A program made the translations under genes and the position numbers. From Patescibacteria group bacterium UBA2196 (GTDB lineage: Bacteria > Patescibacteriota > Patescibacteriia > UBA2196): a stretch of DNA of 64,000 nt. The stretch spans positions 42,579-106,578 of the forward strand of contig DCVE01000013.1 of the NCBI GenBank assembly GCA_002328025.1, written 5' to 3'. The notes under the pieces are model-generated. The model was not told the DNA's origin. It searched no databases and was given only the letters and a program-made list of their open reading frames with translations. This document shows, piece after piece, positions 2,250 to 54,452 of the stretch (positions within the stretch are counted from its first letter, which is position 1; each line of letters opens with the position of its first letter).

Positions 2250-3601
2250 ATTATTTATTGAAAAACAAATTTAATATTTTATTTGTAGTATTTTTTTTGT
2301 TGCTCTTTGCTTTTCGTTTACATAATGCTATAAATTTTAATTCTTACTGGGGTTATGATGGTGGAGCGCATTTGGAATACATAAAAACTGCGATGCAAAA
2401 CTGGAGACTGCCGACAATGGCAGAAAACTATTTGGCCTGGCATGAGCCGGGTTTTTATTTTTTAAACGCTTTATTGGGGTGGGCAACGCAACCAATTTGT
2501 CAGGCTAACTTTTTGGGTTGTACAATTAAAATTTTACAAATAATCTCTTCTTTTATAAGTGTTTTTTTAATTTTTTTAGTTTATAAAATAGCACAAAAGT
2601 TTTCAAGTGATAAAAAAGTTTGGCTGGCGTCCGTAATTGGTAGCAGTTTAATTTCGGTGATGACCGAAACGGCCAATTATTTGACCAATGAATTATGGGT
2701 GGCTTTTTTAACACTCTTATTAATTTATTATTTTATTATTTTTTCACAAAAAGGCTGGAACAAAAAAAGAATTATTTTAATGGGCATACTTTCTGGTGTG
2801 GCCTTGTTAATAAAATTGTCGGCAGTTATCTTTGTGTTGGCGCTTTTGATATGGTTTGTTTATAAAGCCTTTTATGAGTGCAAAATTAAATGGTTGTGGT
2901 ATGGCTTATTGTTTTTAGTGGTGGCGGGCGGTATTTATGCGCCGTGGATTTTTTATAAACAAAAACATTTTGGGAATGGTTTGTCTATAAATATTTATGA
3001 AGACCAACTTAATGACAAAGGAATTTTATCTAAAAATTTTTTTTTGCACGTTAGTGGTGAGATATTTAGGCAGCCGTTTTGGATGAGTTCAAAAGATTCT
3101 TTTTTTAGTGTGGTGTTTGCCGATGCTTTTAGCGATTATTATACAATTGCCAATAATGTTGATAAAAATAATTTAAATTTTCCAGCCGACCAGAAAATTT
3201 TGACTGAAAGCGGTAATTTGGTAAGTGTTAAAAAATTTCAATTTTCAATTTTATTGTTATATTTTTCTTTGGTGTTTATTTTTATTTTTGCTGCTGGCGT
3301 GCTAGGATTATTTTGGTATTGGATAAAAAATGGTTTTAGACCGAATGTTAACTTTTTCTTTCTAATTTTTATTGGTGGTTCTTTTTTAGCCCTGGCTTTT
3401 AATGTGTACAAATTTCCGTTTTTGGAGCGCGGAACTTTAAAAGCGAGTTTTATTCTGTCAGTTTGGCCGTTACTCATGATTATCAGCTGGGCCTGGCTGA
3501 GTATGGTTTTAAAAAAATTTAAATTTGAATTTTTATGGTTAGCGGTTTGGTTTTTGATTTTAATTTGGTCAGTTTTTTCTGTGGCTATTAATTGGATATA
3601 A
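2246..3601 (+). CDS. integral membrane GT-C fold glycosyltransferase (ArnT/PMT-like)
   Basis: more than 10 predicted TM helices; sits downstream of the GT2 polyprenol-P sugar synthase, the typical pairing. Confidence 0.6.
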   Translation: MNYLLKNKFNILFVVFFLLLFAFRLHNAINFNSYWGYDGGAHLEYIKTAMQNWRLPTMAENYLAWHEPGFYFLNALLGWATQPICQANFLGCTIKILQIISSFISVFLIFLVYKIAQKFSSDKKVWLASVIGSSLISVMTETANYLTNELWVAFLTLLLIYYFIIFSQKGWNKKRIILMGILSGVALLIKLSAVIFVLALLIWFVYKAFYECKIKWLWYGLLFLVVAGGIYAPWIFYKQKHFGNGLSINIYEDQLNDKGILSKNFFLHVSGEIFRQPFWMSSKDSFFSVVFADAFSDYYTIANNVDKNNLNFPADQKILTESGNLVSVKKFQFSILLLYFSLVFIFIFAAGVLGLFWYWIKNGFRPNVNFFFLIFIGGSFLALAFNVYKFPFLERGTLKASFILSVWPLLMIISWAWLSMVLKKFKFEFLWLAVWFLILIWSVFSVAINWI

Positions 3602-3607
3602 TATTTT

Positions 3608-4792
3608 ATGAAAATTTGTTTAATCAATAATTTATACGATCCCTATACCAAAGGTGGGGCAGAAACAGTGGTAAAAGCTACAGCTGATGGTTTGGTTAAA
3701 AACGGACACACCGTCATGATAATTACCGCCGGTAGAAAAGATGAAACAATTGAGCAAGATATTAAAATTTACCGCATCAGGGCGTGGAATTTTTTTTCTT
3801 TTTTTGACATTGATAAAAAACCAGCTTTTCTGCGTTTAGTGTGGTGGTTTTTTAATATTTTTAATTTAAGTGTTGTTAAAAAAGTTGAAAGAATTTTACA
3901 ACAAGAACACCCAGATTTGGTGCATACGCACAACTTAAGTGGTTTGAGTTTTTTATTACCACGCAGTATTAAAAAATTAAAAATAAAACACATCCATACT
4001 TTGCATGATATTCAATTGGTTTATCCGTCTGGGCAATTAATTTATGATCAAGAAAAGAATTTTATTAACACCTTTTTTTTAAGGGTTTGGTATGAAAAAT
4101 TAGTACGTACGTTGTTTAATTCGCCACAAATAATTATTTCACCTTCGCAGTGGCTGTTAGATTTTTATCTGAAAAAGAATTTTTTTACCCACAGTCAAAA
4201 GGAATTGGTTTTAAACCCAAGCACTCAAATTTTTGATGGTCAACTTAGATTACCAAAAATTAAAGTTGATGAATTTAATTTTTTATATGTGGGCAGGGTG
4301 GAAGAATATAAAGGGATTATGTTATTAATACAAGCTTTTAAAAAAATATCCATGAGTGATAAAAAGGTTTTTTTACACATTGCTGGTACTGGACGCGAAA
4401 TGAAAAAAGCACATAGTTTGGCTGCAGAAAGCGAAAATATTTTTTTCTATGGTCAATTAGAAAGAGAACGTTTGACAGATTTGTACGGACAGGCGCAAGT
4501 TTTGATATTACCAACTTTGACCTATGAAAACGCGCCAACAGTTATTGTGGAAGCTTTTAGCCGTGGTTTGCCTGTTATTGCCTCTAATCTTGGCGGGATT
4601 ATTGAATTAGTACAAGAAGATAAGACGGGTTTTTTGTTTAAACCAGGCGACATTGAGGGTTTGGTAAAAACCATGTTGAATGTTTTAGATAATGACAACC
4701 TAAATAATTTAAGTCAGAATTGTTGGCAACGCGCTAAAAAACATAATTTAGACATGTATATAAAAAGGCTGGAAGAAATTTATTTAAGCTAA
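3608..4792 (+). CDS. glycosyltransferase family 1
   Basis: KICLINNLYDPYTKGGAE N-term; C-term E-x7-E GT1 motif (VIVEAFSRGLPVIAS). Confidence 0.75.
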   Translation: MKICLINNLYDPYTKGGAETVVKATADGLVKNGHTVMIITAGRKDETIEQDIKIYRIRAWNFFSFFDIDKKPAFLRLVWWFFNIFNLSVVKKVERILQQEHPDLVHTHNLSGLSFLLPRSIKKLKIKHIHTLHDIQLVYPSGQLIYDQEKNFINTFFLRVWYEKLVRTLFNSPQIIISPSQWLLDFYLKKNFFTHSQKELVLNPSTQIFDGQLRLPKIKVDEFNFLYVGRVEEYKGIMLLIQAFKKISMSDKKVFLHIAGTGREMKKAHSLAAESENIFFYGQLERERLTDLYGQAQVLILPTLTYENAPTVIVEAFSRGLPVIASNLGGIIELVQEDKTGFLFKPGDIEGLVKTMLNVLDNDNLNNLSQNCWQRAKKHNLDMYIKRLEEIYLS

Positions 4793-4829
4793 TTTGCTTA
4801 GATATTTTTTTTGTGTCATAATGTTTTAT

Positions 4830-5501
4830 ATGTCAGATAATAAAGAAAAAACTCAACAGCTTTTGGAAGAAAAAATTAAAGCCTTAAATGAAGCACCAGA
4901 TTTTAAGGAATATTTTAAATTGACGCGCGACATAAATCGCGAGTTTATTGGTACTTGGGAGTTTATAGAAAAATTTTTGGAGCCCGATCCGATTTTATCT
5001 TATAAATTTTTGATTGAAAGTTTTGGTAAAAAAGCTGAATTAGACAAAGAAAATAATAAATTAGAAAAAGATAAAGAAGAAACGATAGAAAAGTTTACTA
5101 AGCAGGTTTTGGATCTTTTTGAAAAACGTGATTTTGAAAAAACTACGCAGCAGCTTTTTTATGTATTACTGGGTAATGTGATGGAACACGTTGGTCAAGC
5201 CGAAACTGATGTAAATAAATTTAATTTAGAAACTGATCTGTACCCAAAATTAAAAATGCCTTTGTCGTTGGCGTTTTTTATGTTTCAAAATTTGGCCTTT
5301 GGGCCAGTCGCTGCCAAAATTAACACCTTAAGTCCAGAGTATTTAAGAAAATATTGCGCATTGGTTTTGGGTTTGTGGCGGACTGTATTTGAACTGATGG
5401 CCTATGAAAGACACATGGCTAAACATGATAAAGGACACCATGCAACCCACCAACATGATGATATGGTGATAAAAAATGATGCACAAAAGGAGCAAGAGTA
5501 A
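4830..5501 (+). CDS. hypothetical protein, His-rich C-terminus
   Basis: ORF track (start moved to internal MSDNK); charged coiled-coil-like; C-term HDKGHHATHQHDD. Confidence 0.5.
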   Translation: MSDNKEKTQQLLEEKIKALNEAPDFKEYFKLTRDINREFIGTWEFIEKFLEPDPILSYKFLIESFGKKAELDKENNKLEKDKEETIEKFTKQVLDLFEKRDFEKTTQQLFYVLLGNVMEHVGQAETDVNKFNLETDLYPKLKMPLSLAFFMFQNLAFGPVAAKINTLSPEYLRKYCALVLGLWRTVFELMAYERHMAKHDKGHHATHQHDDMVIKNDAQKEQE

Positions 5502-5616: not shown

Positions 5617-5990
5617 AAGGGGTGGGTGAGCAATCGCCCTAATATCCGCTAATTGGTGGATTGTTGGGGAGGAAAGTCCGGACGCCACACAAAGGATAGT
5701 TCTGAAACAGAACCGAGCATAAGAAATACAAGAAAAATAAGTTACGATCGTTTTATTTTTCTTGGTCAATTTTAAAACTCCGAGCAAGCGCCACAGAAAA
5801 TAAACCGCCTTGTTAGTTAAAAGACTCACGAGGTAAGGATGAAACCGCGGTGTAAGAGACCACGCGCTTCTATGGTGACATAGATTTGGGTAAGCCTTAT
5901 CCGGCGCAAGTCCCTTTAAAAGGACGCGTTAGATAGATGATTGCATTCCGTTTAGACGGAAACAGAATCCGGCTTATGATCCCACCCTTT
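5617..5990 (+). ncRNA. rnpB: RNase P RNA (bacterial type A)
   Basis: conserved P4 strands GGAGGAAAGTCCGGAC and AACAGAATCCGGCTTA; terminal P1 pairing AAGGGGTGGG/CCCACCCTT; GC-rich in an AT-rich background; no ORF. Confidence 0.85.
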
Positions 5991-6012
5991 GGATATATAA
6001 GAATTTTAATTT

Positions 6013-8628: not shown

Positions 8629-10713
8629 TTAATACTTAAAAATCCAGGCTTTGCCGGCCATAATTTCCCAGCTTTCCTTGGCAGTGTTTTTGCCATCAAT
8701 TACAAGTTTTTTGTAGTTAGTCCAATAATCATTAAAGATTAAATATATGTTTTGAACACCGGTAAGCTGTTTAGCAGAGCTAATAAATTTTGGTTGAATA
8801 CCTTGATAAGTAATGTCAAGATAAATTTGATAAAGCGGGGAAGATGTTGGTAGGGGATAATAAAAGAGATTGTTATAATATTTTTTGAAACCAAATTCTT
8901 GTAAAGCAGCAGCCGCAGTTGATTGATTGGCTAGAACCACATAATTATCAGTGATATTTTTTTGTTCAACAAGTTGAACGGCCTGTAGATCGGCTGTGGA
9001 TACGCCGTAGCCTTTGTTTTTTTCTAGACGGTCATAACGCGGATAAGAAAAATAAAAAATTGAGACAGCAATAAAAGATAGTGTAAAAATTAATAAGCTA
9101 ATTTTTTTTGAATCATATTTTTTATCCAGTTTAAAAACAGTGGCTAGATATAATAAAAATGGTAAAGCAAAAAAATAGGCAGCATGTACAAAGCGCATGG
9201 GGAAAATATTTTGTTCGTAACTAATTACAGCACTAAAGTTTAGGCATTTTAATAATAAGGCGTTAAATAATAAAATAAAAATAAGCCAAGGAAAAATAAA
9301 TATTTTTTTATCAGTTATTACGGAATGGGTTTTATAAAATTTCCAAAAACCAAGGCTGCTGCCCAGAATTACTAATAAAATAAAATATTTTTTTAATAAA
9401 TATGGTGCATGTAAAAAAGAGTAAAAAGATAAATAATTGTCTTGCGCCAGCCATGTTTTTAATAATTCTTGGGGCCCATTAAAGTTAAAAGTTAAGTTAA
9501 AATTGGGTAACAAAAAAGTGGCGCTCAAAAAAATTATTGGCAGGATAAAAAGAAATATAAGCACAGAAAAATTAAAGACAAGCTTTTGCTGTGGGCGTGT
9601 TTTAAGCCAACACAACCAACAGCACATTAAAGCCGGCAGGCCTGCTAATGGGTGTATGGCTGTAATGCTAAGGCCCAAAAACCACAATTGGTTAATTTTG
9701 AGGGTTGCGGAATTCAGATTTATGAAAACTAGCCAGACAAAAACAATTAAAAAAAGATTGGCTAAGTGTTGAGGTGTGGTAACAAAAAACGAAAATAAAG
9801 TTAGAAGGGCAGCAAACAAGGCCAAAATTTGGGCCATTTTTTTTTCGGCCATTAATTTTAAAAAAGCAAAATAAGTAACCAACGGTATTAACAATGCACC
9901 CAAAATCGGTGCTAAAAATTTGTCAATAATAGTCAAATTTATGTATGAAATTTTGGCGATAAAAACCGTTAAACCATATTGGCCAATGTAATAGGGTGTT
10001 TGGGGTAAAACAAAACCTTGCGTAAAAATTATTTTTTCGGCAACGCGATGAATAAAAGGGTCAAAGCCGTAGCCAATTTGGTAGATTATAACTGCGACGG
10101 AGGCACTTAAAAAAATTTGTAAGACCACCAGGATGATATTTTTGGAAGAGGGGAATTTAATAATTTCAAATAGCACAAGAAAAGTGGCCAAAAAATAGAG
10201 CAAAAAGAACGGTGTTGGTAAAACTGTCCACGGTGAAACAAGCGCTTCAGAACTACTGTTTATGATTAAAAAGTAAAAGAGTGCAATAAAGAGACCTGAA
10301 TAAATTAGGTTAAGAAAAAAAATAATTTTTTTACTATCTTTTTTATTATTTTCTTCACTACTAATGGATGCAAACGGTTGAGTTGGTGTGGTTTGATTAG
10401 CCGGCAAAAAAATAGTCGTCACCAGCGGCATTAATAACACCAAAAAAATTGAAAAATTAGTTAGCCCCAGAGTATAATAAAGAATTACACTGGACAAGAT
10501 TATCTCAGCTATTAAAAAGATAAAACCTAAAAAAAATCGAAAATATTTTTTTTGACTAAAAAAAATTCGTTGACCAAAATAAAAGCTAAAAAAATAAAAA
10601 TAAATTAAAGTCAGAAGTCCGCCCACAAACGGATTTTTGAATGCCAGCATATTTAACACCAAGACTAAAATTATGAGCAGAGGTTGGATTAAAAATTTGA
10701 TTTTTTGTGACAT
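8629..10713 (-). CDS. large polytopic membrane protein (putative GT-C-like glycosyltransferase/hypothetical)
   Basis: 694 aa, many TM helices, C-terminal soluble domain. Confidence 0.55.
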   Translation of the reverse strand: MSQKIKFLIQPLLIILVLVLNMLAFKNPFVGGLLTLIYFYFFSFYFGQRIFFSQKKYFRFFLGFIFLIAEIILSSVILYYTLGLTNFSIFLVLLMPLVTTIFLPANQTTPTQPFASISSEENNKKDSKKIIFFLNLIYSGLFIALFYFLIINSSSEALVSPWTVLPTPFFLLYFLATFLVLFEIIKFPSSKNIILVVLQIFLSASVAVIIYQIGYGFDPFIHRVAEKIIFTQGFVLPQTPYYIGQYGLTVFIAKISYINLTIIDKFLAPILGALLIPLVTYFAFLKLMAEKKMAQILALFAALLTLFSFFVTTPQHLANLFLIVFVWLVFINLNSATLKINQLWFLGLSITAIHPLAGLPALMCCWLCWLKTRPQQKLVFNFSVLIFLFILPIIFLSATFLLPNFNLTFNFNGPQELLKTWLAQDNYLSFYSFLHAPYLLKKYFILLVILGSSLGFWKFYKTHSVITDKKIFIFPWLIFILLFNALLLKCLNFSAVISYEQNIFPMRFVHAAYFFALPFLLYLATVFKLDKKYDSKKISLLIFTLSFIAVSIFYFSYPRYDRLEKNKGYGVSTADLQAVQLVEQKNITDNYVVLANQSTAAAALQEFGFKKYYNNLFYYPLPTSSPLYQIYLDITYQGIQPKFISSAKQLTGVQNIYLIFNDYWTNYKKLVIDGKNTAKESWEIMAGKAWIFKY

Positions 10714-42761: not shown

Positions 42762-43970
42762 ATGGATTTTAAAAATATACACCCACAAAATAGTTATCGC
42801 ACTTTTACTCCAGCACCAACACCTCCAAGACGGTGGAAAAAAAAGTTGGCTTTTTTGGTTTTTTTGGCAGCGGTATTTTATGTTCTATTTGTATATATTT
42901 TACCAAGTGTAGAAGTGACAGTTTTTTTATCAGCGGAAAATTTTGATAAAGAATATGATATAACTTTGGATCAAAACGTAAGTGGTGAGGTAACGGCTGG
43001 GAATGTTTTTCCAGCTAAGTTTTATCAAGTTTCTGGTGAAGATCGGGGTAACTTTAAGGCCACAGGACAAAAAAATACCGGTGATAAAGCCAGTGGTAAT
43101 GTTACTTTTTATAATTTTACTGGACGCTCACAACCAGTTACCAAAGAAATGGAGCTTAAACACAGTTCTGGTCAGATTTATTTTTTAAAAAATGAATTGA
43201 CTATTCCAGCCGCTCAAATTTCTGATCTGGGAGAAATAGTCGCTGGCAAGATTATTGGTGAGATTGAAGCCCAAGAGGCTGGTGAAGTTTACAATCAAAA
43301 ACCAGGTCGGGTGGTCATTCCCATTGTGGCCAATGAAATTCAGGATAAAATTTATGGTGAAACAGATGACTTGGGTGGCGGAACATCAAAAATTACTCAG
43401 GTTGTTTCACAGGAAGATTTAAACAACGCGCAAATTGATTTATCTAATAGACTGTCACCTAAATTAAAAGATAAAATTAAAAATCAAATTAAAAAAGACA
43501 GTGAGATAATGCGCAACGAATTAACGATCTTGGAGATAGATAATGTGGATAAAAGCACTGAAATTAATAAGGAAGTGTCTGACTTTGAAATGAAAATTAA
43601 TGCGACACTTAAGGCCTTGGTTTATGATGAAGTGGTATTAAAAAAATACTTGAAATCTAAAATACTTTTGGATTTACCAGATAATAAGATGGTGGCTGAA
43701 GACGATTTAGGACAATTGGAAATTACAGTCAAGGAGATGGATCTGGCTTTGGGGGTGGTAAAAATTAAGGTTAGGGCGCAACATAAAGTTTTACCCAAGA
43801 CGGATGTAAGCGTTATCAAGGACAGTATAAAAGGCTTAAAAGAGCAGGATGCGCGTCGTTATGTGTTAAGTTTGCCGAACGTGCGCGATGCGCGGTTTGT
43901 GTTCACTTATAATTTACTTGACAAAATACCCAATAATTTGAATAAAATTAAGATAAAGGTTGGAAATTAA
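42762..43970 (+). CDS. hypothetical protein, N-terminal TM anchor
   Basis: ORF track; Pro-rich N-term then TM, then soluble domain. Confidence 0.5.
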   Translation: MDFKNIHPQNSYRTFTPAPTPPRRWKKKLAFLVFLAAVFYVLFVYILPSVEVTVFLSAENFDKEYDITLDQNVSGEVTAGNVFPAKFYQVSGEDRGNFKATGQKNTGDKASGNVTFYNFTGRSQPVTKEMELKHSSGQIYFLKNELTIPAAQISDLGEIVAGKIIGEIEAQEAGEVYNQKPGRVVIPIVANEIQDKIYGETDDLGGGTSKITQVVSQEDLNNAQIDLSNRLSPKLKDKIKNQIKKDSEIMRNELTILEIDNVDKSTEINKEVSDFEMKINATLKALVYDEVVLKKYLKSKILLDLPDNKMVAEDDLGQLEITVKEMDLALGVVKIKVRAQHKVLPKTDVSVIKDSIKGLKEQDARRYVLSLPNVRDARFVFTYNLLDKIPNNLNKIKIKVGN

Positions 43971-43977
43971 AGCCCTC

Positions 43978-44006
43978 TTGACAGATATTTAACCATACTT
44001 TATAAT
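43978..44006 (+). promoter_or_regulatory. consensus sigma70 promoter of the infA-ribosomal protein operon
   Basis: TTGACA-17-TATAAT; ~125-nt 5' UTR. Confidence 0.55.
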
Positions 44007-44134
44007 AAAACTATATTAAAAAGCTAACTAACAATGGAATATTTATCTAAACTATCAAGAATTGTGAGTAATTCTAATTTTTAGAGTTATCTCATATTTT
44101 TTTATGCTTTGGATAAAAATAGACTAATAAAATA

Positions 44135-44491
44135 ATGTCAGAAAACACACTTAGTCAAAACGTTAATAATCAAGTTGATGAAACGCCAGAAATCCCGGCG
44201 GCAGAAGTTTTGCCGGTTGTTGAACCTAATCAGGTTCAAAATCAGACACCCCAAGATAGTTTTAATAATTTTAAAGTTAACAAAAAGGGTTTTATTGAGG
44301 TGGACGGTGAGGTGATAGAAACCTTGCCCAGTATTACCTTTAGGGTGCGTTTGGAAAATAATTATCAAGTGGTGGCCAGATTATCCGGTCGCATGCGGAT
44401 GAATAAAATTATGCTTTTGCCGGGTGATAAAGTTAAAGTGGAACTAACACTCTACGATTTGACAAAAGGCAGAATAACTTATCGTTATTAA
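44135..44491 (+). CDS. infA: translation initiation factor IF-1 with ~45 aa N-terminal extension
   Basis: S1-like core [22 protein letters not shown]...KGRITYRY. Confidence 0.8.
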
Positions 44492-44497
44492 ATTTTT

Positions 44498-44614
44498 ATG
44501 AAGGTAAAATCTTCGGTTAAAAAAATTTGTAAAGATTGTCAAACTGTACGTCGTAAAAACAGAGTTTTTGTGGTGTGCAAAAAAAATCCTAAACACAAAC
44601 AAAGACAGGGTTAA
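44498..44614 (+). CDS. rpmJ: 50S ribosomal protein L36
   Basis: [38 protein letters not shown] (38 aa); found manually, below the ORF-track cutoff. Confidence 0.85.
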
Positions 44615-44626
44615 TTATATTTTTTT

Positions 44627-45016
44627 ATGGCTAGAATTGCCGGTATCAATTTACCTAATGATAAGAAAGTTGAATACGCCTTGCCGTATCTTTATGGCAT
44701 TGGTTTAACAATTTCAAAGAAAATTTTAAAGGAATTAAAAATTGATGACAACAAACGAGTCAAAGATCTTTCTGAAGAGGAGGTTAATTCTTTGCGGGTG
44801 GAAATTGAAAAAAAATATCGCGTGGAAGGTGAGCTACGCCGTGAAGTAATTTCTAATATCAAAAGATTAAAAGAAATTAATTCTTATCGTGGTTCAAGAC
44901 ACGCCAAGAATTTACCAGCCAGAGGTCAACGCACCAAAACCAATTGCCGGACCGTCAAAGGTAATGTGCGCAAAACCATGGGTTCGGGTCGCAAAACTTC
45001 GGCGCAGAAAACCTAA
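44627..45016 (+). CDS. rpsM: 30S ribosomal protein S13
   Basis: [10 protein letters not shown]. Confidence 0.9.
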
Positions 45017-45047
45017 TTAGTATACTTATTTAATAAATATCAATACA

Positions 45048-45587
45048 ATGTCTACTGATGATAATAAAATTATAACTGATGAATTAGCTCAGCCAAAAGA
45101 TTCTATCAATGAGGTTGATTTAGAACAGGTGGCTCAAGATGGGGACGTGGCTGTTGAGGTTGTTGATGATAATGGAATTGTAGAAGAAAAAACCGTTGTT
45201 ACCAAAGGGAGAAAAAAGAAAAAGAAAGAACCTTTTTTGCGTGGTGGACGTGGTCAAATTCATATTAAATCATCTTATAACAACACCATTGTTACCATTA
45301 CTGATTTAAATGGTTCGGTTTTAGCTTGGTCTTCAGCTGGTAAGTGTGGTTTTAAGGGTCCTAAAAAATCAACACCATACGCGGCTGGTGTGATTGTTAA
45401 ATCTTTGGTTGATAAAATTAAAGCTTTGGGCATTAAAGAAACTGACGTCGAAGTTAAAGGTGTTGGTATGGGTCGTGAGGCAGCGGTGCGCGCTTTGGGC
45501 GCAAATGGCGTGCAGGTGGTGTCAGTAAAAGATGTAACACCGGTCAAACACGGTGGTGTAAGATCAAAACGTCCCAGAAGAGTTTAA
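45048..45587 (+). CDS. rpsK: 30S ribosomal protein S11 (N-terminal acidic extension)
   Basis: GQIHIKSSYNNTIVTITDLNG core. Confidence 0.9.
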   Translation: MSTDDNKIITDELAQPKDSINEVDLEQVAQDGDVAVEVVDDNGIVEEKTVVTKGRKKKKKEPFLRGGRGQIHIKSSYNNTIVTITDLNGSVLAWSSAGKCGFKGPKKSTPYAAGVIVKSLVDKIKALGIKETDVEVKGVGMGREAAVRALGANGVQVVSVKDVTPVKHGGVRSKRPRRV

Positions 45588-45613
45588 TTATTTTGTGATT
45601 TAATTTTTTATTT

Positions 45614-46246
45614 ATGTCTCATTTTTCTGGTGCACAATGCAAAAGATGTCGTAGATTGGGAGTCAAGCTTTGCTCTAAAGGCGAGCGTGGTTTGGGTTCT
45701 AAATGTGCTTTGGCCAGAAGAAATTATCCACCTGGTGTGCATGGTCCAAAGGGTTATGGTCGAATTAGCGATTATGGTTTGCATTTGCAAGAAAAACAAA
45801 AATTAAGAGTGATTTACGGAATTATGGAAAAACAGTTGCGTAAGTATTTTGAGGAAGCCAAAAGAGAAAAAACCAACACCGGTTTTAAATTATTAGAATT
45901 ATTAGAAAGACGTTTTGATAATATTATTTATCGTTTAGGTTTGGCATCTTCCAGACGTCAGGCTAGGCAGATGGTGGGGCATAATCATTTTAAAGTTAAT
46001 GGCAAAAAAATGAATATTCCCTCTTACACAGTCAAAAGAGGCGATGTAATTAGTATTGCCAAAGAAAAATCTTTAACCAAGGGTCAAATTGCCGAGAACA
46101 TAAAGACAATGGCCAAAAAAGAAATTCCAGTTTGGTTATTTTGGGATGAACAAAATAAAAAAGGCCAAGTTGTCGAATTACCGCAAAATAATGATTTGGA
46201 TGTTGGTGTGGACACCCGTTTAATTGTGGAATTTTATTCACGCTAA
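45614..46246 (+). CDS. rpsD: 30S ribosomal protein S4
   Basis: CxxC zinc motif near N-terminus; S4 domain. Confidence 0.9.
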   Translation: MSHFSGAQCKRCRRLGVKLCSKGERGLGSKCALARRNYPPGVHGPKGYGRISDYGLHLQEKQKLRVIYGIMEKQLRKYFEEAKREKTNTGFKLLELLERRFDNIIYRLGLASSRRQARQMVGHNHFKVNGKKMNIPSYTVKRGDVISIAKEKSLTKGQIAENIKTMAKKEIPVWLFWDEQNKKGQVVELPQNNDLDVGVDTRLIVEFYSR

Positions 46247-46269
46247 ATTTATAAAATAAATATAAATAT

Positions 46270-47109
46270 ATGGAAAACATCCCATTGGCAAAAAAAATAA
46301 CTTTTCATCCTGATACGGAAAACTATGCCAAAAACAAAGGTTATTTTACTATTGAACCGCTGTTTCCCGGTTATGGTTTAACTTTGGGTAATGTTTTAAG
46401 ACGAGTGTTGCTATCATCTTTATCAGGCGCGGCCATTGTGGCGGTTAAAATTAATGGTGTTAGTCATGAATTTTCCACAATTGATTGGATCAAAGAGGAT
46501 GTCTTGGATATTATTTTAAATTTAAAACAGATTAGAATTAAGGTTGGTCCAGAGGTGGATTTTCCGCTCAAATTAACTTTGAGCGTCAAGGGTCAAAAAG
46601 AAGTTACGGCCGGTGATTTTGAAAAAATGGCCGGACTTGAAGTTATTAATACAGATCAAAAAATTGCCACCCTAACCGACCACGCGGCACGTTTAGAAAT
46701 GGAAGTTTATGTGGATTATGGTCGGGGTTATTTACCAACCGAAGCCAGAGAAAATAAAAATTATGAAATTAACACTATGATGGTGGATGCAATTTTTACA
46801 CCCATAAAAAGAGTTGGTTATGATATTGAAAATGTGCGTGTTTTGCAGATGACCAACTGGGATAAATTAATTTTAAAAATTGAAACTGACGGTACCATAA
46901 CCTGTGAAGACGCGTTTAAACAGGCGGTCAACATTATCTTGGAACAATTTTCTGGTTTATTAAATAAAGAAATAGCTGAGGATAATCACAAAAAAACAGT
47001 TGAAGCGCAAGCCCCAGACATGGTTGAAGATGAATCAGTGGATGACAACGAGTCAGATTCTGAAGAAAAGCCTAAAAAAAGAGGTAAAAAAAAGAAAGAT
47101 GAAGTTTAA
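46270..47109 (+). CDS. rpoA: DNA-directed RNA polymerase subunit alpha (NTD only; acidic/basic tail replaces alpha-CTD)
   Basis: alpha-NTD conserved; 279 aa; C-terminus ...DESVDDNESDSEEKPKKRGKKKKDEV with no helix-hairpin-helix. Confidence 0.8.
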   Translation: MENIPLAKKITFHPDTENYAKNKGYFTIEPLFPGYGLTLGNVLRRVLLSSLSGAAIVAVKINGVSHEFSTIDWIKEDVLDIILNLKQIRIKVGPEVDFPLKLTLSVKGQKEVTAGDFEKMAGLEVINTDQKIATLTDHAARLEMEVYVDYGRGYLPTEARENKNYEINTMMVDAIFTPIKRVGYDIENVRVLQMTNWDKLILKIETDGTITCEDAFKQAVNIILEQFSGLLNKEIAEDNHKKTVEAQAPDMVEDESVDDNESDSEEKPKKRGKKKKDEV

Positions 47110-47134
47110 TATAAAATTTAGTTAAAGAATTAAT

Positions 47135-47485
47135 ATGCGACACCAAAACAGTCAAAAAACACTGGATAGAAAAAGTGGTCCGCGCACAGCTTTGTTAAAA
47201 GGTTTGGCGCAGAGTTTAATTTTGTATGAAAAAATTCAAACCACCGAAGCCAAAGCCAAGGTTATAAAACCAGTGGTGGAAAAAATGATTACGCGCGCCA
47301 AGGTTGATTCATTGCACAATCGGCGTGAATTGATGAAGTTTTTACCAACCCAAAATGCAGTCAGAAAAATATTTGATGTTTTGGGCCCACGTTTTAAAGA
47401 ACGTAAGGGCGGTTATTTAAGAATTACTAAATTAGGTGCGCGTCAGGGTGATGCCGCACAAATGGCACAAATAGAATTTGTATAA
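47135..47485 (+). CDS. rplQ: 50S ribosomal protein L17
   Basis: MRHQNSQKTLDRKSGPR. Confidence 0.9.
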   Translation: MRHQNSQKTLDRKSGPRTALLKGLAQSLILYEKIQTTEAKAKVIKPVVEKMITRAKVDSLHNRRELMKFLPTQNAVRKIFDVLGPRFKERKGGYLRITKLGARQGDAAQMAQIEFV

Positions 47486-47490
47486 AATAT

Positions 47491-47838
47491 ATGGCAGAAA
47501 ACATTTACACAATTGATGCAACCAATAAAGCCGTGGGACGTTTGGCGACAGAAATCGCTATAATTTTGCGTGGTAAAAACAAGCCCACCTTTGCTCCCAA
47601 CATGGAAAGTGATAACATGGTAGTGGTTAAGAATATAAAGTTTTTGAAATTTACTGGTAAAAAATTACAGCAAAAGGTTTACAAACACCACACCAACTAT
47701 CCGGGTCATCTAAGAAGTATCAAGATGTCTGATATTCAAAAAGAAAACCCAGCCAAAGTTTTAGAAATGGCAGTTTTACGTATGTTACCTGCAGTAAAAT
47801 TTAGAAAAAAAATGATGCAGAAATTGAGTTTTGAATAA
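47491..47838 (+). CDS. rplM: 50S ribosomal protein L13 (short)
   Basis: ATNKAVGRLATEIA...GKNKPTF. Confidence 0.85.
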   Translation: MAENIYTIDATNKAVGRLATEIAIILRGKNKPTFAPNMESDNMVVVKNIKFLKFTGKKLQQKVYKHHTNYPGHLRSIKMSDIQKENPAKVLEMAVLRMLPAVKFRKKMMQKLSFE

Positions 47839-47857
47839 TTAAAAGTAAGCAATAAAT

Positions 47858-48271
47858 ATGTCAGAAAATAAATTAACTACAAAAGAATATTTTCAAGGTT
47901 TGGGTCGCCGCAAAGCAGCCATTGCTCAAGTTAGACTATATGCAGAAGGCACAGGCGAAACAACCATTAACGGTAAACAGGCTGATGTGTTTTTTCCTTA
48001 TTTTGAATTTAAAGATCAGGCTTTTTCTCCACTCAAAATTTTAGGTTTGGAAAAAAAGTTTGATATGTCAGTTAAAGTTGCGGGTGGCGGTTATAGAGGT
48101 CAGGCTGAAGCAATTAAATTGGGGGTGGCCAGAGCTTTGGTGGTTTTTAATGAAGAGAACAAAAAAGTTTTACGTGCCAGCGGATTTTTAAGTCGTGACC
48201 CCAGAATTAAAGAACGTAAGAAGCCGGGCTTGAAGCGCGCACGTCGTGCGCCACAGTGGGCAAAACGTTAA
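47858..48271 (+). CDS. rpsI: 30S ribosomal protein S9
   Basis: GLGRRKAAIAQVRL...C-terminal KRARRAPQWAKR. Confidence 0.9.
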   Translation: MSENKLTTKEYFQGLGRRKAAIAQVRLYAEGTGETTINGKQADVFFPYFEFKDQAFSPLKILGLEKKFDMSVKVAGGGYRGQAEAIKLGVARALVVFNEENKKVLRASGFLSRDPRIKERKKPGLKRARRAPQWAKR

Positions 48272-48296
48272 TTTATTGGTTTATATACTTTTTAAA

Positions 48297-48322
48297 AGCC
48301 CTGTTGTGTACAGGGTTTTTAT
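48297..48322 (+). terminator. intrinsic terminator ending the ribosomal operon
   Basis: CCCTGT-TGTGT-ACAGGG followed by T5. Confidence 0.5.
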
Positions 48323-48324
48323 AT

Positions 48325-48353
48325 TTGACATTTTTATTAAACTGTGTTATAAT
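48325..48353 (+). promoter_or_regulatory. consensus sigma70 promoter (extended -10) driving the GC-rich island
   Basis: TTGACA-17-TGtTATAAT. Confidence 0.5.
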
Positions 48354-48402
48354 ATATTTAGCTAATATAAACAAAAATTCCTTTAAAATGAGTTGAGAGG
48401 AG

Positions 48403-49585
48403 GTGATTTCTTTGTCTCGTCAGATGAATTGCATTCAGTGGGTTCTGGTAGTTTTGGTGGTTGGATTGTTTATCTTTAACCACCGGGAAGTTATCGTAAA
48501 GCAGTACCGTGATAACACGCCCGTATTGACGAGCGAAGAAATCACGGAATTGGAAAACAATGTGGAAAAAGTATATGCCACGGCCAAAGAAAAAATAGAT
48601 GCCGAGACATATACACCGCTGGATTGGCAGCGGGATATCTATTTTTTAAAGTTAAAAATTATTCGTACCATGGGGGGGCACGTACAGCTCTGGGAGCTAT
48701 CGTTTCTATGAGCTGGCTGAAGAAGCCTATCAGTATACCATTGATAGGTATTACACCCCCAAGAGTGATGATCCAAAAAGAACATTGTTTTTTCAGCAAG
48801 AGGTTAACAATGCTCAGGCTCAAGTCATGGCGGAAAACAATGAAAGGGTTGACTGGGCTAAAATATTTAGCCAGCTTCATCTGTTCATGCTGGCTTTTCT
48901 GCCATATTCTTTGCTGATCGTCCTTATTCGCCGTTCAGCAAGATATAAATTATGGCAGATATATTCGGCCGGAGATATCGTCTGGGTCATAATTGCGATT
49001 GGCTTGAGCGTTTTTGGGGCCATCGCTTACCGCCCCGACAATTTCATCCAGAAGCGCGTTGATTCGCAACTGCAAATCTGGAAGGAAAGAATCGGTGCAA
49101 GAGGTTGGCGTTTGGCTTTGGCGTATTTGGTGGCGATTGTTATTTCTTTGGCCACTTTATTTCGCCCGGCCAAATCGCAGGCCCAGACAGTAGTCGAGAC
49201 CAAGATTGTTAGTATGGTCCCAGCTGCCACCATCGCCAATCAACAGGAAGAATCCGACGAGCAGCAAGTTTTTTTCCCAGAAAAGATCGTCGGATTTTTG
49301 CGGAGATTTTTTGAAGAAATTATGAAGGGGATTGAGACTGTTGTTTACAGTTTATTTTCTCTTCTTATTATCCATTTTTTTTCTCCTCCGCTAGAGTTTG
49401 TCTGGGGGATGTGGGCCAGGCCACCAGATGATATTCGTCTTTGGACGATCCGAGCCCTTGGTTCTCGCGCTCCTGCGAATTTTGTTCAATTTAATTCACG
49501 AATTAATTGGACAAAAAACAAAGGAGTTTATCATGAGAACCAAAATTGTAGTTTTTATAATCTTGGCGCTTTTTGCTGTAGCTAG
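48403..49585 (+). pseudogene. polytopic membrane protein gene split by a frameshift at a G7 tract (48670-48676); GC-rich island
   Basis: frame 1 ORF 48403-48711 and frame 2 ORF (open from 48656 to 49585) join across GGGGGGG; both halves carry TM helices; the intermediate ORF 48624-48917 is an out-of-frame artefact. Confidence 0.45.
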
Positions 49586-50132
49586 CGCCAAAGACCCGTC
49601 CAACACTGTGAAGTTTAATGTCGCCACAAGCGGCGGTAAAAACAGTGTTTCGGTAATTGTTTTCCATCTACGGGAAAATACTGGTTTTTTAAGTATTATT
49701 CCTCAGAACGGGATTCAAGCCGGGGTTGGACCAAATTTTTGGATAAACACGCGAGGAGTTAAGGGCTGTCTTTTTACCCCCTTGGCTCTTTGCTCTGTGC
49801 AGGACGATCAAGAAGGAATCGGGGTAGGCGAGGTAAGACTTTGGAACATCTTTTTGGCCTCAAGCGGGTCAGTAAAGGTAAGTTCATTGTCTTATTATTC
49901 CTGGCCTTTGATTCAATCCAAAACCAGGAGTTTTTATACAAAAGACCAGGTTACTTTTAGTAATTTTGGTCTGCGGATTGAGAGCGCTTGGCTTAAAGAT
50001 TGGTCCAACTTGGTCGGACCTGTATATCAATTTAACATCCATCCCAAGTTGAACATGCTTTTCTTCTTAAACCTGAATAAGGAAGTTAAAGAAAAGCGTT
50101 CACTGAAGATGGAGATGAGTGTTAGTTTCTAA
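49533..50132 (+). CDS. secreted beta-rich protein with signal peptide and C-terminal aromatic beta-signal-like motif
   Basis: RBS AAAGGAG 7 nt upstream; signal peptide MRTKIVVFIILALFAVASA; C-terminal ...LKMEMSVSF (alternating hydrophobics, terminal Phe); ~180 aa. Confidence 0.5.
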   Translation: MRTKIVVFIILALFAVASAKDPSNTVKFNVATSGGKNSVSVIVFHLRENTGFLSIIPQNGIQAGVGPNFWINTRGVKGCLFTPLALCSVQDDQEGIGVGEVRLWNIFLASSGSVKVSSLSYYSWPLIQSKTRSFYTKDQVTFSNFGLRIESAWLKDWSNLVGPVYQFNIHPKLNMLFFLNLNKEVKEKRSLKMEMSVSF

Positions 50133-50138
50133 TCAATT

Positions 50139-50170
50139 GCGGGTCGCCGAAAGGACGACCCGTTTTTTAT
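50139..50170 (+). terminator. intrinsic terminator closing the GC-rich island
   Basis: CGGGTCG-CCGAAAGGA-CGACCCG followed by T6. Confidence 0.6.
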
Positions 50171-50212
50171 TTTTGTAAAATTGGTATTTTTTTGCTATAA
50201 TCCATATAAAAT

Positions 50213-51691
50213 ATGGTGGCACAAAAAACCTTAACTCAAAATGCGACCTATTACACCGGAGCGCTAATATTACAAAAGATTTTAGCGTTTGTTTATTTTA
50301 CTTTTTTAGCGCGCGGACTTGGAGTAGAAGATTTGGGCAAATACAGTTTTGCCTTTTCTTTTACCACTATTTTTAGCGTGTTTGTGGATGTGGGTTTAAA
50401 TTCTGTTTTGACCCGCGAGATTGCCAAGGATAGAAATAAAACCCAAGAAATTTTGGCCAATGTTTTGGGGGTAAAAACAGTTTTAAGTTTTTTCACCTAT
50501 GCATTGATTGTGGCTTTGGTAAATTTTATGGGCTATCCAGAGTTGACCAAAAATTTGGTATATTTGACCGGCTTAATTATGTTGTTGGATACTTTTTCTG
50601 CCACTTTTTGGGGTGTGCTGCGAGGTAATCAAAATTTAAAATATGAAAGCATTGGCATAGTTTTATTTCAATTTTTGGTGGTGGGCATGGGCATGGTTTT
50701 GTTGGCGGCTGGCGTCGGGGTGGTGCCACAGGTGTTGGCAGTCGTGGTTGGCAGTTCATTTTTATTTGTTTATTCTTTTTTAGAAATGCGTCGTCGCCTA
50801 CATGTGCCGTTTAAAATTAGTTGGAATAAAAAATTGGTAAAAGAATTGTTAAAAATTTCTATACCTTTTGCTTTAACAGGAATTTTAGCGCGTCTTAATA
50901 CGCAGGTGGACACCATTTTTTTATCAAAGGTTGGTTGTGCCACGCAAGCTGTGTGTGATTCAAATGTGGGTATTTATTCGGTGGCGACCAAAATTACTTT
51001 AGCTTTGCATTTTATTCCTTTGGCCTTTGTAGCCGCGCTTTTTCCGGCTTTTTCTGAATATTATGCCACTAATAAAGAAAAATTGGCGCGCACTTTTGAA
51101 AAATCAATGCGTTATTTGATGTTGGTTAGTATCCCCATGGCGTTGGGAATTTTGGTCTTGGCGTCAGATTTCGTGCCAAAAGTTTTTGGAGTCGAATATG
51201 CGGCCGCGGTGTTACCTTTGCAAATTTTAATGGTTTCTTTGGTTTTTTTATTTTTAACTTTTCCAGTTGGTTCACTGTTAAACGCAACTTCCAGGCAAAT
51301 TGATAATACCAAGCAAATTGCCATTGCCGCGCTTATTAATTTTTTATTAAATTTATTTTTAGTTCCCAAGATGACCTATGTTGGCGGTGCTTTGTCTTCA
51401 TTAATTAGCACTTTGGTCTTATTTTATCTGGGTATAAGGATTTCTAATCAGGTTTTGAATTATGATAAAAAATATTTATTAAAAAGTTTTTTTCTGTGTT
51501 TGGTGGCGGGTCTGCTGATGAGCTTGGTTTTGTGGCTGTTGCTGTTTAAGATTAATTTTATAATTTTAATTGCTTTGGGCGTTGTAATTTATTTTGTTTT
51601 ATTATTATTTTTTAAGGTTTTGACAAAAGACGATATTAATGAAATACTGCTGTCTTTGAAACTAAAAAAGTCATTTTATGACAAAGGATAA
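50213..51691 (+). CDS. polysaccharide/O-antigen flippase (Wzx, MOP superfamily)
   Basis: 12-14 TM helices; polysaccharide biosynthesis protein pattern; preceded by TTGTAA-17-TGcTATAAT promoter. Confidence 0.8.
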   Translation: MVAQKTLTQNATYYTGALILQKILAFVYFTFLARGLGVEDLGKYSFAFSFTTIFSVFVDVGLNSVLTREIAKDRNKTQEILANVLGVKTVLSFFTYALIVALVNFMGYPELTKNLVYLTGLIMLLDTFSATFWGVLRGNQNLKYESIGIVLFQFLVVGMGMVLLAAGVGVVPQVLAVVVGSSFLFVYSFLEMRRRLHVPFKISWNKKLVKELLKISIPFALTGILARLNTQVDTIFLSKVGCATQAVCDSNVGIYSVATKITLALHFIPLAFVAALFPAFSEYYATNKEKLARTFEKSMRYLMLVSIPMALGILVLASDFVPKVFGVEYAAAVLPLQILMVSLVFLFLTFPVGSLLNATSRQIDNTKQIAIAALINFLLNLFLVPKMTYVGGALSSLISTLVLFYLGIRISNQVLNYDKKYLLKSFFLCLVAGLLMSLVLWLLLFKINFIILIALGVVIYFVLLLFFKVLTKDDINEILLSLKLKKSFYDKG

Positions 51692-52748
51692 AACACTATT
51701 AGTCACTTTGGATTTTCCTCCGCTTCTCGGCGGTGTAGCAAATTATTATTTTGAACGGGTGAAAGCAATGTCAAAAGATGAGATTGTGGTTTTGGTTGAT
51801 GAATTAAAAACTGAGGGTTTAAAACTGGAAATGGGAGCAAAAATTTATCGTTTTAAGTTTTTGCAGCGATTTATTTGGCCGCATTGGTTATTTTTAATTT
51901 GGTATATTTATAAAATAGTAAAAAAAGAAAAAATAAATAAAATTTGGGTCGGGCAAGTTTTGCCAGTTGGCACGGCCGTGTGGGTGGTGAGTAAAATTTT
52001 AAATATTCCATATTTTGTTTCATGTCATGGCAATGACCTACTTAGGGCTAAAAAAAATAAGCGCAAATTTAAATTAGCCAAGAAAATTTTAGCTGACGCT
52101 GAATTTGTGGAAGCCAATACGGAATTTACTAAAAATATTTTAGTTAACGATTTTGAAATTTCAGCAGAAAGAATAAAAATTGTTTACCCAATTAATACTT
52201 TAAAAAAGGCAATGGTGGATTTACAAAAAGTGGGGGAGTTAAAGGAAAAATATAATTTAAAAGATAAAAAAGTTTTATTAACTGTGGGGCGTCTGGTGGA
52301 ATCCAAAGGCATTGATTTAGTTTTGCAAGCTTTGCCAAAAGTTTGGCAAAGTGTGCCAAACCTGGTTTATTTAGTTATTGGCGATGGACCAGATAAAAAC
52401 AGATTAATGCAAATTGTTAATAAATTGCCGCAGAATATAAAACCAAATATTGTCTTTGTTGGTGCAGTACCATATCTTGAACTGCCAAATTATTATGCCT
52501 TGGCGAGTGCCTTTATTTTAACTCCGCGTTCCACCCCTCTCATTTATAAGGAGAGGAAGGGAGAGGTAAACACAGATACAGAGAGTTTTGGGGTGGTTTA
52601 TTTGGAGGCTCAAGAGTTTGGTTTGCCAGTTGTGGCTGGCAAGGTGGGTGGAGCTTTAGAAATTGCTAAAAATTATAACCAAATGCATTTAATTGATTCT
52701 GAAAATAATAATGAAATTATTGAGAAGATAATAGAAATAATAAAATAA
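51678..52748 (+). CDS. glycosyltransferase family 1 with in-frame palindromic insertion before the E-x7-E motif
   Basis: ESFGVVYLEAQEFGLPVVAG GT1 motif; insertion RSTPLIYKERKGEVNTDT encoded by 52534-52580. Confidence 0.75.
   Translation: MTKDKTLLVTLDFPPLLGGVANYYFERVKAMSKDEIVVLVDELKTEGLKLEMGAKIYRFKFLQRFIWPHWLFLIWYIYKIVKKEKINKIWVGQVLPVGTAVWVVSKILNIPYFVSCHGNDLLRAKKNKRKFKLAKKILADAEFVEANTEFTKNILVNDFEISAERIKIVYPINTLKKAMVDLQKVGELKEKYNLKDKKVLLTVGRLVESKGIDLVLQALPKVWQSVPNLVYLVIGDGPDKNRLMQIVNKLPQNIKPNIVFVGAVPYLELPNYYALASAFILTPRSTPLIYKERKGEVNTDTESFGVVYLEAQEFGLPVVAGKVGGALEIAKNYNQMHLIDSENNNEIIEKIIEIIK
52534..52580 (+). repeat. GC-rich palindromic in-frame insertion in GT1 gene (CCCTCTC-loop-GAGAGG...)
   Basis: CCTCTC/GAGAGG inverted repeat with 9-nt loop; GC spike inside an AT-rich gene. 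Confidence 0.4.
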
Positions 52749-54224: not shown

Positions 54225-54325
54225 ATTTGCTTTATATTGTTTTTTCTTTTAAAATTAGAGTGTATTTTGGGTTATTTGTTGGTTGGCCAGCGATATATAT
54301 TTAATAGTTAATTATTCATCTTTTT

Positions 54326-54397
54326 GCCCCCATCGTCTAATGGTTAGGACACATGGTTCTCAGCCATGTAATTGGGGTTCGATTCCCCATAGGGGTA
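54326..54397 (+). tRNA. tRNA-Glu (anticodon CUC)
   Basis: cloverleaf by eye: D-stem GTCT/GGAC; anticodon stem CATGG/CCATG with loop TTCTCAG; T-arm TGGGG-TTCGATT-CCCCA; acceptor has one C-A mismatch and a G-U pair; CCA not encoded. Confidence 0.65.
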
Positions 54398-54452
54398 AGA
54401 AGATGAATAGTTAATTGGGTGGTGTGAATTTTATTATCCGTGAATATTATTT

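Follow-up and report, generated by a model that had tools for sequence, protein, structure and literature searches.

A rare two-gene cassette encoding a membrane protein and a predicted outer-membrane-type β-barrel between rpsI and wzx in Patescibacteria

The window (the whole stretch of 64,000 nucleotides from Patescibacteria group bacterium UBA2196) was found to contain a two-gene cassette at positions 48297–50170, between rpsI and the gene of the Wzx flippase. The first gene, AB, encodes a polytopic membrane protein and is split by a frameshift. The second gene, C, encodes a β-rich protein with a signal peptide that was predicted to fold as a small outer-membrane-type β-barrel. The cassette is a self-contained two-gene transcription unit with one promoter, overlapping AB and C genes, and terminators on both sides; it is real, old, and partly broken in this genome. 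The features of the locus are given below. Both Shine-Dalgarno sites were read from the sequence, and related loci and homologous proteins are referred to by L and P numbers, respectively.

47858–48271: rpsI (S9 gene), upstream neighbour of the cassette
48297–48322, + strand: intrinsic terminator after rpsI, a hairpin (CCCTGT/ACAGGG and A-U pairs) followed by a U-run; kept in L010 and L022
48325–48353, + strand: sigma-70-type promoter of the cassette, TTGACA, 17 nucleotides (nt), TGTTATAAT (extended -10)
48354–48402, + strand: 5' leader, with the Shine-Dalgarno GGAGG at its end (48399–48403)
48389–50103, + strand: segment missing from the sister genomes L022–L026 (deletion scar), from BLASTN break-points, intergenic sequences and gene tables
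48403–48711, + strand: AB 5' fragment, frame 1, ending in a premature stop that results from the frameshift (open reading frame (ORF) list and three-frame translation)
48672–48678, + strand: G7 homopolymer, the +1-base frameshift site that splits AB
~48680–49585, + strand: AB 3' part, frame 2 (translation, alignments with invariant columns and hydropathy scan)
49520–49535, + strand: Shine-Dalgarno (AAAGGAG) and ATG of C, inside the 3' end of AB
49533–50132, + strand: gene C, a precursor of 199 amino acids (aa), mature ~180 aa
50139–50170, + strand: intrinsic terminator of the cassette, followed by a U-run; kept in L010 and the scar genomes
50173–50201, + strand: promoter-like site of the Wzx flippase, outside the cassette, TTGTAA-17-TGCTATAAT, 10/12 consensus positions with TG
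50213–51691: Wzx flippase gene, downstream of the cassette (Pfam Polysacc_synt, E 1.4e-38)

The promoter scan has shown that the TTGACA-17-TGnTATAAT promoter matched 12/12 consensus positions and contained the TG extension. The promoter of L010 was identical, and the scar genomes L022 and L024 kept it with one change in the -10 element (TATCAT). The region 48290–48328 was found to fold with -15.6 kcal/mol (z -5.4) and the region 50134–50176 with -18.1 kcal/mol (z -4.2), and no shuffled sequence was as stable in either case. An earlier interpretation, made without database searches and called here the sequence-only reading, had described this promoter and both terminators, and all three were confirmed. 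No Rfam family matched the leader of the cassette.

Three-frame translation has shown that AB is made up of two pieces in different frames, which join across the G7 run. The 5' fragment (start candidates GTG 48403, TTG 48412, and ATG 48424) encodes an N-terminal transmembrane helix and the beginning of a helical ectodomain, and residues 1–85 of AB aligned with the intact homologues P0005, P0007, and P0009. The 3' part encodes the rest of the ectodomain and three strongly hydrophobic transmembrane helices (residues ~150–168, 182–200, and 228–246), as well as the conserved core YRPxNFxQK..D..L..W...G..GWRL.LAY...RP.K followed by the C-terminal region, a third of the protein that was poorly modelled. 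After correction of the frameshift, AB contained ~386 aa and was collinear, end to end, with intact homologues of 385–391 aa. Its layout is an N-terminal transmembrane helix, a helical domain of ~120 aa, and at least three further transmembrane helices (at least four in total). Relative to the intact AB of L010, the window was found to carry one extra base at the G-run (ATGGGGGGGCACG vs. ATGGGTGGA-AAG), and L010 contained GGGTGGA at this site, without a homopolymer. The same G7 was present in the independent assembly L007 (SRR943333), and both assemblies (n = 2) contained seven G nucleotides. The public annotation at AB is a single ORF of 252 aa (P0006). Full-length AB is probably not made in this genome; C has a ribosome-binding site of its own, from which it may be translated despite the frameshift. 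The sequence-only reading was right that a polytopic membrane protein is encoded, but it took AB for a simple ORF and overlooked the frameshift.

The genes of the cassette were found to be under selection. Between the window and L010, the ratio of nonsynonymous to synonymous substitution rates (dN/dS) was 0.22 for AB (dS 0.55) and 0.09 for C (dS 0.36), and the dS values of both were within the range of the flanking genes (0.2–0.95). AB and C are therefore real, selected genes that diverged in step with the genes around them, and the frameshift is of recent date. Scans of AB against Pfam, NCBIfam, PHROGs, and PADLOC gave nothing above threshold. The neighbouring Wzx gene and the arrangement of a helical ectodomain between transmembrane helices had suggested a polysaccharide co-polymerase (PCP; Wzz/Wzc). 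This identity was rejected because no Wzz/PCP profile of Pfam or NCBIfam matched AB (sub-threshold noise only: DUF1542, Imm17, and MprF), and because AB contains at least four transmembrane helices and a short ectodomain of ~120 aa.

The last 53 nt of AB overlap C. The same 53-nt overlap was present in L001–L005 and L010, and an overlap of 50 nt in L030. The conserved overlap and the Shine-Dalgarno embedded in AB indicate that the translation of the two genes is coupled. In the window (49398–49532, + strand) and in L012 (8968–9108), the frame of C was also open inside AB over the ~45 codons that precede its ATG, which may simply follow from the coding constraints of AB.

The precursor of C contained a Sec signal peptide at residues 1–19 (N-terminus MRTKIVVFIILALFAVASA followed by KD), with cleavage between ...AVASA and KDP. 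The protein ends in LKMEMSVSF, with hydrophobic residues at positions 1, 3, 5, 7, and 9 of this tail; the alternation was conserved in the family, and the terminal Phe was present in 13 of the 14 family members. The Gly of the canonical β-signal motif was absent. A signal peptide and a C-terminal β-signal, the two sequence marks of the outer-membrane protein (OMP) fold, are thus found in C, and in these respects the protein is as the sequence-only reading described it. The AlphaFold2 model, obtained from an alignment of 14 sequences, was an all-β meander with a mean predicted local distance difference test score (pLDDT) of 87 and a predicted template modelling score of 0.78; 130 of the 199 residues had a pLDDT of at least 90. 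Structural neighbours of the model were the β-domain of BrkA (score 15.5), VhGalP (15.5), KdgM (15.3), NanC (14.9), FapF (14.8), Intimin (14.5), the COG4313 channel (14.5), and Hbp (14.4). They aligned over 158–174 of the ~180 mature residues with 6–11% identity, and all significant neighbours were transmembrane barrels. In Foldseek, KdgM and a designed 12-stranded barrel each had a TM-score of ~0.6 to the model. Most of the strands contained one hydrophobic face, the other face being polar or charged. The model thus predicts a closed, 12-stranded, antiparallel transmembrane barrel.

The sequence-only reading had assigned C to the OmpX/OmpW class and had proposed a structure search with the product of 49533–50132. 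The search predicted an outer-membrane-type β-barrel, in agreement with the fold class, but its matches were 12-stranded. The 8-stranded OmpX/OmpW size class was rejected, since the model has 12–13 strands, the top matches have 12, and no 8-stranded barrel was among the top matches. C had no match in Pfam or NCBIfam at E values up to 1 and belonged to no OMP family profile, and the PHROGs and PADLOC scans of C and the PDB sequence search with the profile of its family gave nothing meaningful. The fold search against BFVD returned only generic phage OMP-like barrels with low TM-scores, and therefore no sign of a phage origin of C was found. Judging from the model, C appears to be a new sequence family that adopts a known fold; its occurrence in this lineage was unexpected, and its partner or fusion is without precedent. 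Apart from C, a crude β-signal filter was passed by two ORFs of the window only: an amino-acid permease and a 694-aa protein (8629–10713, - strand) with an N-terminal hydrophobic segment, the tail ...AGKAWIFKY, and no PHROG match.

The small 12-stranded porins of the KdgM/NanC type (PDB 4pr7, 4fqe, 2wjr, and 8xua) showed 8–12% identity to C, with no Pfam match. They are found in Proteobacteria, whereas C is found in Patescibacteria, and C is co-translated with a polytopic membrane protein, or in remote homologues fused to one, which is never the case for KdgM/NanC. The 12-stranded β-domains of autotransporters, intimin, and invasin (BrkA 3qq2, Hbp 3aeh, and intimin 5g26) differ in that C contains neither a passenger domain nor a pore-traversing helix. 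The N-terminal part of the fused proteins, unlike that of autotransporters, consists of α-helical transmembrane segments that are incompatible with passage through a barrel, and no match to the Pfam Autotransporter family was found. With the 8-stranded barrels of the OmpX/OmpW/OmpA type, C shares the small outer-membrane-type barrel, the signal peptide, and the aromatic C-terminus. The literature treats the candidate phyla radiation (CPR)/Patescibacteria as monoderm and without porins, and no description of an OMP-like barrel from Patescibacteria or Parcubacteria was found in a search of the literature.

The family was found to be rare. With the C family as the profile, an exhaustive search of 1.84 billion representative proteins gave only 12 matches, and a metagenome scan with AB gave only two loci. 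Out of billions of proteins, about two dozen belong to the family, and none of these contains a Pfam OMP domain. The informatively named loci were L012, a Candidatus Kuenenbacteria metagenome-assembled genome (MAG), and L016, a "Patescibacteria group" MAG. The gene order L17-L13-S9-AB-β protein...Wzx of L016 was shared with the window; its Wzx and S9 proteins were 64–67% identical to those of the window and its L17 protein ~77% (tblastx). This synteny, together with the identities, places the window in the Patescibacteria, and the CPR-like setting that had been suggested earlier was borne out by it and by the named loci.

The partners of AB in L012, L014, and L016 were β-rich proteins with signal peptides; the last residue is Phe in the L012 and L016 partners, and the L014 partner ends in ...YFQ. 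Their matches to OMP families were sub-threshold only (Porin_4, E 0.04; Phenol_MetA_deg, E 0.02; and Lom, E 0.015), and the L014 and L016 partners had no meaningful match among PDB sequences. The partner in L016 (3374–4246) is a 290-aa protein with a signal peptide and the end ...GVLFQQEF; the weak matches to Porin_4 (E 0.04) and Lom (E 0.015) are those of this protein. A radical-SAM gene (4322–5212) was present between it and wzx. In L005, a GIY-YIG endonuclease gene (563–835) lies directly upstream of the cassette, and a gene of 207 aa (3048–3671) separates the barrel gene from wzx. In remote homologues, the C domain forms the C-terminal half of fused proteins of 354–468 aa (P0012, P0015, P0019, and P0020, on contigs too short for taxonomy). 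The N-terminal half of these proteins contained a transmembrane helix, a helical region, more transmembrane helices, and an AxA-like site right before the barrel. The fusions physically link the barrel to a helical membrane anchor. Scans of the fused homologues against Pfam, NCBIfam, PHROGs, and PADLOC gave nothing above threshold, and in an hmmsearch of AB against them, a weak collinear match to P0020 was the only one.

The cassette was found to differ from its surroundings in composition. The segment 48297–50170 contained 42.2% GC against 35.4% in the whole window (standard deviation (sd) 2.3% among windows of this length). It was the highest-GC stretch of its length, at ~2.9 sd, and was matched by only 0.6% of the windows; the top-GC windows were all located at ~47500–49500, covering the cassette. 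In 300-bp windows, the flanks ranged between 29 and 41% GC, and 50% was attained in the cassette at 48950–49249 only. Elevated GC had thus been noticed correctly in the sequence-only reading, but its contrast of 27–30% to ~50% was overstated. The GC content at third codon positions (GC3) was 0.50 in the AB 5' part, 0.45 in the AB 3' part, and 0.44 in C, whereas that of the 51 other genes of the window was 0.305±0.035 with a maximum of 0.368 (z 3.9–5.6 for the cassette). The content at first and second codon positions was normal, and the GC excess was almost wholly at third positions (synonymous sites). The foreign-looking codon composition that had been claimed was thus borne out. The GC3 excess of L010 was equal to that of the window.

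In relatives, the same genes were found with a composition that fits their genomes. The GC3 of the cassette was native in the ~42% GC genomes L001 and L012, and in the low-GC genomes L005 and L011 (33–36% GC) it was 0.29–0.37, which is also native. The allele of the window and L010 resembles the ~42%-GC type. The sequence-only reading had named such relatives as an observation that would speak against its view of acquisition; their presence indicates that any transfer took place between Patescibacteria and not from a diderm. Exchange of parts of the cassette was seen directly. L030 and L012 were 90% identical through the upstream region and AB to ~25 nt before the AB stop, had nothing in common across the ~590-bp barrel gene, and became alike again 24 nt beyond the stop of that gene. 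L030 and L001 had the C-terminal half of AB and C in common, but not the N-terminal half of AB. The high GC3 is best explained by import of the allele from a ~42% GC Patescibacterial lineage, the presumed donor, through such module exchange before the window, L010, and L022 split.

Sister genomes have recorded the later history of the cassette. L010, from a different sample and run, was 87.6% identical to the window across 44000–52007 and contained the same promoter, junctions, and terminator with an intact AB; L006–L009 reproduced C with the Wzx junction. In L022–L026, whose flanks were ~89% identical to the window, rpsI was directly followed by wzx. Their intergenic region kept the promoter, the leader to 48388, the last 29 nt of C (...LKMEMSVSF and the stop), and the terminator. 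These remnants mark a deletion scar and not an empty site, and the cassette therefore predates the split of the lineages. It is intact in the L010 lineage, frameshifted in the window, and deleted in L022–L026. No integrase or transposase, tRNA, or direct- or inverted-repeat boundary was found at the cassette, which thus shows no insertion signature, and no paralogue of the cassette was found elsewhere in the window.

Two explanations place the origin of the cassette outside the lineage. A chimeric assembly, in which a ~1.8-kb fragment of another organism was joined into the contig, was raised in the sequence-only reading and is favoured by nothing but the compositional step. It is refuted, because both junctions recur in L010, L006–L009 have the junction between C and Wzx (L007 with G7 as well), and L022–L026 keep both junction sequences with the promoter, the C tail, and the terminator. 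A recent island from a diderm donor, carrying an ordinary small OMP and an inner-membrane gene, would account for a GC3 far above the genome background, for a unit with its own promoter and terminators, and for an OMP-type fold with a C-terminal Phe. It is largely refuted and very improbable. Every locus with an informative name or synteny was Patescibacterial, and the few family members lack Pfam OMP domains. The boundaries carry no mobile-element mark, the junctions in L010 are identical with dS equal to that of the flanks, the cassette-less relatives show a scar, and the order rpsI...AB-barrel...wzx also occurs in the distant L016. Of the horizontal island proposed earlier, the deviating synonymous composition stands, but the recent insertion does not. 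As for a history that was always vertical, with the high GC3 due to gene-specific selection or mutation (codon choice for expression or mRNA structure), the wzx-adjacent position common to L005 and L016 agrees with it, as does an anomaly that is equally strong in L010 and therefore old and stable, with dS similar to the flanks. We consider this history rather unlikely, since ribosomal-protein and other genes of the window never exceed GC3 0.368, the same genes have native GC3 in L005 and L011, and block exchange between lineages was observed.

The remaining alternatives concern the proteins. C could be a secreted soluble or wall-associated all-β protein, with the barrel closed by AlphaFold as a default and AB an unrelated neighbour. 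An outer membrane is not expected in the CPR, no sequence match ties C to OMP families, the alignment is shallow, and the count of strand segments is odd. The confidence of the model, its significant neighbours that are all transmembrane barrels, the two-faced strands, and the conserved C-terminal hydrophobic residues point the other way, and the gene overlap and the fusions tie C to a membrane protein; we regard a non-barrel C as improbable. The G7 frameshift could likewise be a reversible phase-variation switch (slipped-strand mispairing), or be bypassed in expression, and not mark a dead gene. The tract is a homopolymer near the 5' end of a coding sequence that belongs to a surface module, the dN/dS of AB is still 0.22, and two assemblies agree on G7. 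A switch nevertheless seems unlikely, because the intact relative has no homopolymer at the site, no variation of the tract length was seen in the two assemblies, and the deletion of the whole cassette in sister lineages fits decay. We return to the cassette as a rare accessory Patescibacterial envelope operon, in which a polytopic AB is joined to a coupled porin-like barrel C and the allele is an old import, and favour it with modest confidence. Several observations weigh against it. The prediction of the barrel was built on 14 sequences only, and DSSP assigned 13 strand segments to the model, so that 12 is a provisional strand count. The AB model had a pLDDT of 55, with the ~120-aa helical domain as its sole confidently modelled part. 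There was no sequence-level tie of AB or C to characterised families in Pfam, NCBIfam, PHROGs, PADLOC, or PDB sequences. With hhalign, the C family showed no significant homology to the partners in L012, L014, and L016, and neither did AB to the N-terminal region of the fused proteins (probability below 1%). The donor lineage of the GC3 signal was inferred from composition only. Finally, two AB-bearing MAGs are labelled "uncultured Gammaproteobacteria", a label that looks doubtful.

These two MAGs, L013 (the same locus as L011) and L014 (8001–12200), were of ~33% GC. Their AB was ~46–51% identical to that of the window over the first 76–85 residues (tblastx) and 41–43% over the whole protein. 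After AB they contained a β-rich partner of 259–270 aa, a thioredoxin-like/DsbD-like membrane protein of 394–396 aa, and a Cys-rich secreted protein of 306–312 aa.

Other features were found in the window and its relatives. The glycosyltransferase gene after wzx is a variable spot. In the window (51678–52748, + strand) it encodes 356 aa and overlaps wzx; in L010 (11269–12408) it encodes 379 aa with 75% amino-acid identity to that of the window and a dN/dS of 0.25; and in L022–L026 (L022 9758–11011) it encodes 414–417 aa, with a fragmented nucleotide alignment. L024–L026 contained an extra HTH_3 gene of 61 aa between wzx and the glycosyltransferase gene (L024 4220–4405). A hypothetical protein of 402 aa (42762–43970, + strand) was located between alaS and infA and was conserved in L010 and L022, where it contained no Pfam domain; its residues 81–201 matched PHROG 6, "baseplate wedge subunit" (E 1.4e-8). 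A bacterial class A RNase P RNA (5618–5992, + strand; 169.6 bits) and a tRNA-Glu (CTC) (54325–54398, + strand) were the only Rfam/ARAGORN matches in the 64 kb.

In the envelope operon proposed here, one promoter would drive AB and the translationally coupled C. AB would be a protein of the cytoplasmic membrane, with its N-terminal anchor, ~120-aa helical ectodomain, at least three further transmembrane helices, and conserved core. C would be exported by Sec and, according to the model, would fold into a small 12-stranded porin-like barrel with a polar lumen and the C-terminal Phe motif. The barrel may act as a channel or an anchor in a lipid layer that lies beyond the cytoplasmic membrane; this layer could belong to the cell itself, as an outer layer not recognised so far, or be the envelope of a host cell. 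AB may be the dedicated partner of C for tethering or assembly; the presence of a membrane region and a barrel in one polypeptide in the remote homologues supports a physical and functional link between the two. The module would behave as a surface-exposed contingency locus, dispensable and under diversifying selection, and the pattern of swapping, frameshift, and deletion fits a dispensable surface-exposed module. In this respect it resembles the variable surface and phage-receptor loci of diderms (allelic replacement of porins and homopolymer contingency loci), with which it shares the exact replacement of the barrel gene between 90%-identical backgrounds, the swap of the ectodomain, and the loss by deletion and homopolymer frameshift in close strains. 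The likeness is a behavioural analogy only.

OMP-type β-barrels count as a hallmark both of diderm envelopes and of assembly that depends on the β-barrel assembly machinery (BAM), and the CPR are treated as monoderm in models of envelope evolution. We tentatively suggest that some Patescibacteria, regarded as monoderm and lacking BAM, could make genuine OMP-type barrels through a dedicated, sometimes fused, partner in the cytoplasmic membrane. If this is true, the barrels would be located in an outer lipid layer that has so far gone unrecognised or, serving as a channel for nutrients or attachment, in the outer membrane of the cell to which an epibiont attaches; an arms race with hosts or phages would then be reflected in the swapping of barrel and ectodomain modules. 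In the CPR, a conserved barrel gene under selection, linked to a helical membrane protein by coupling or fusion, prompts three questions: the location of the barrel, the means of its insertion in the absence of BAM, and its possible use by epibiotic CPR cells where they meet their hosts. The locus is, in addition, a clear example of the exchange and decay of surface modules within CPR populations.

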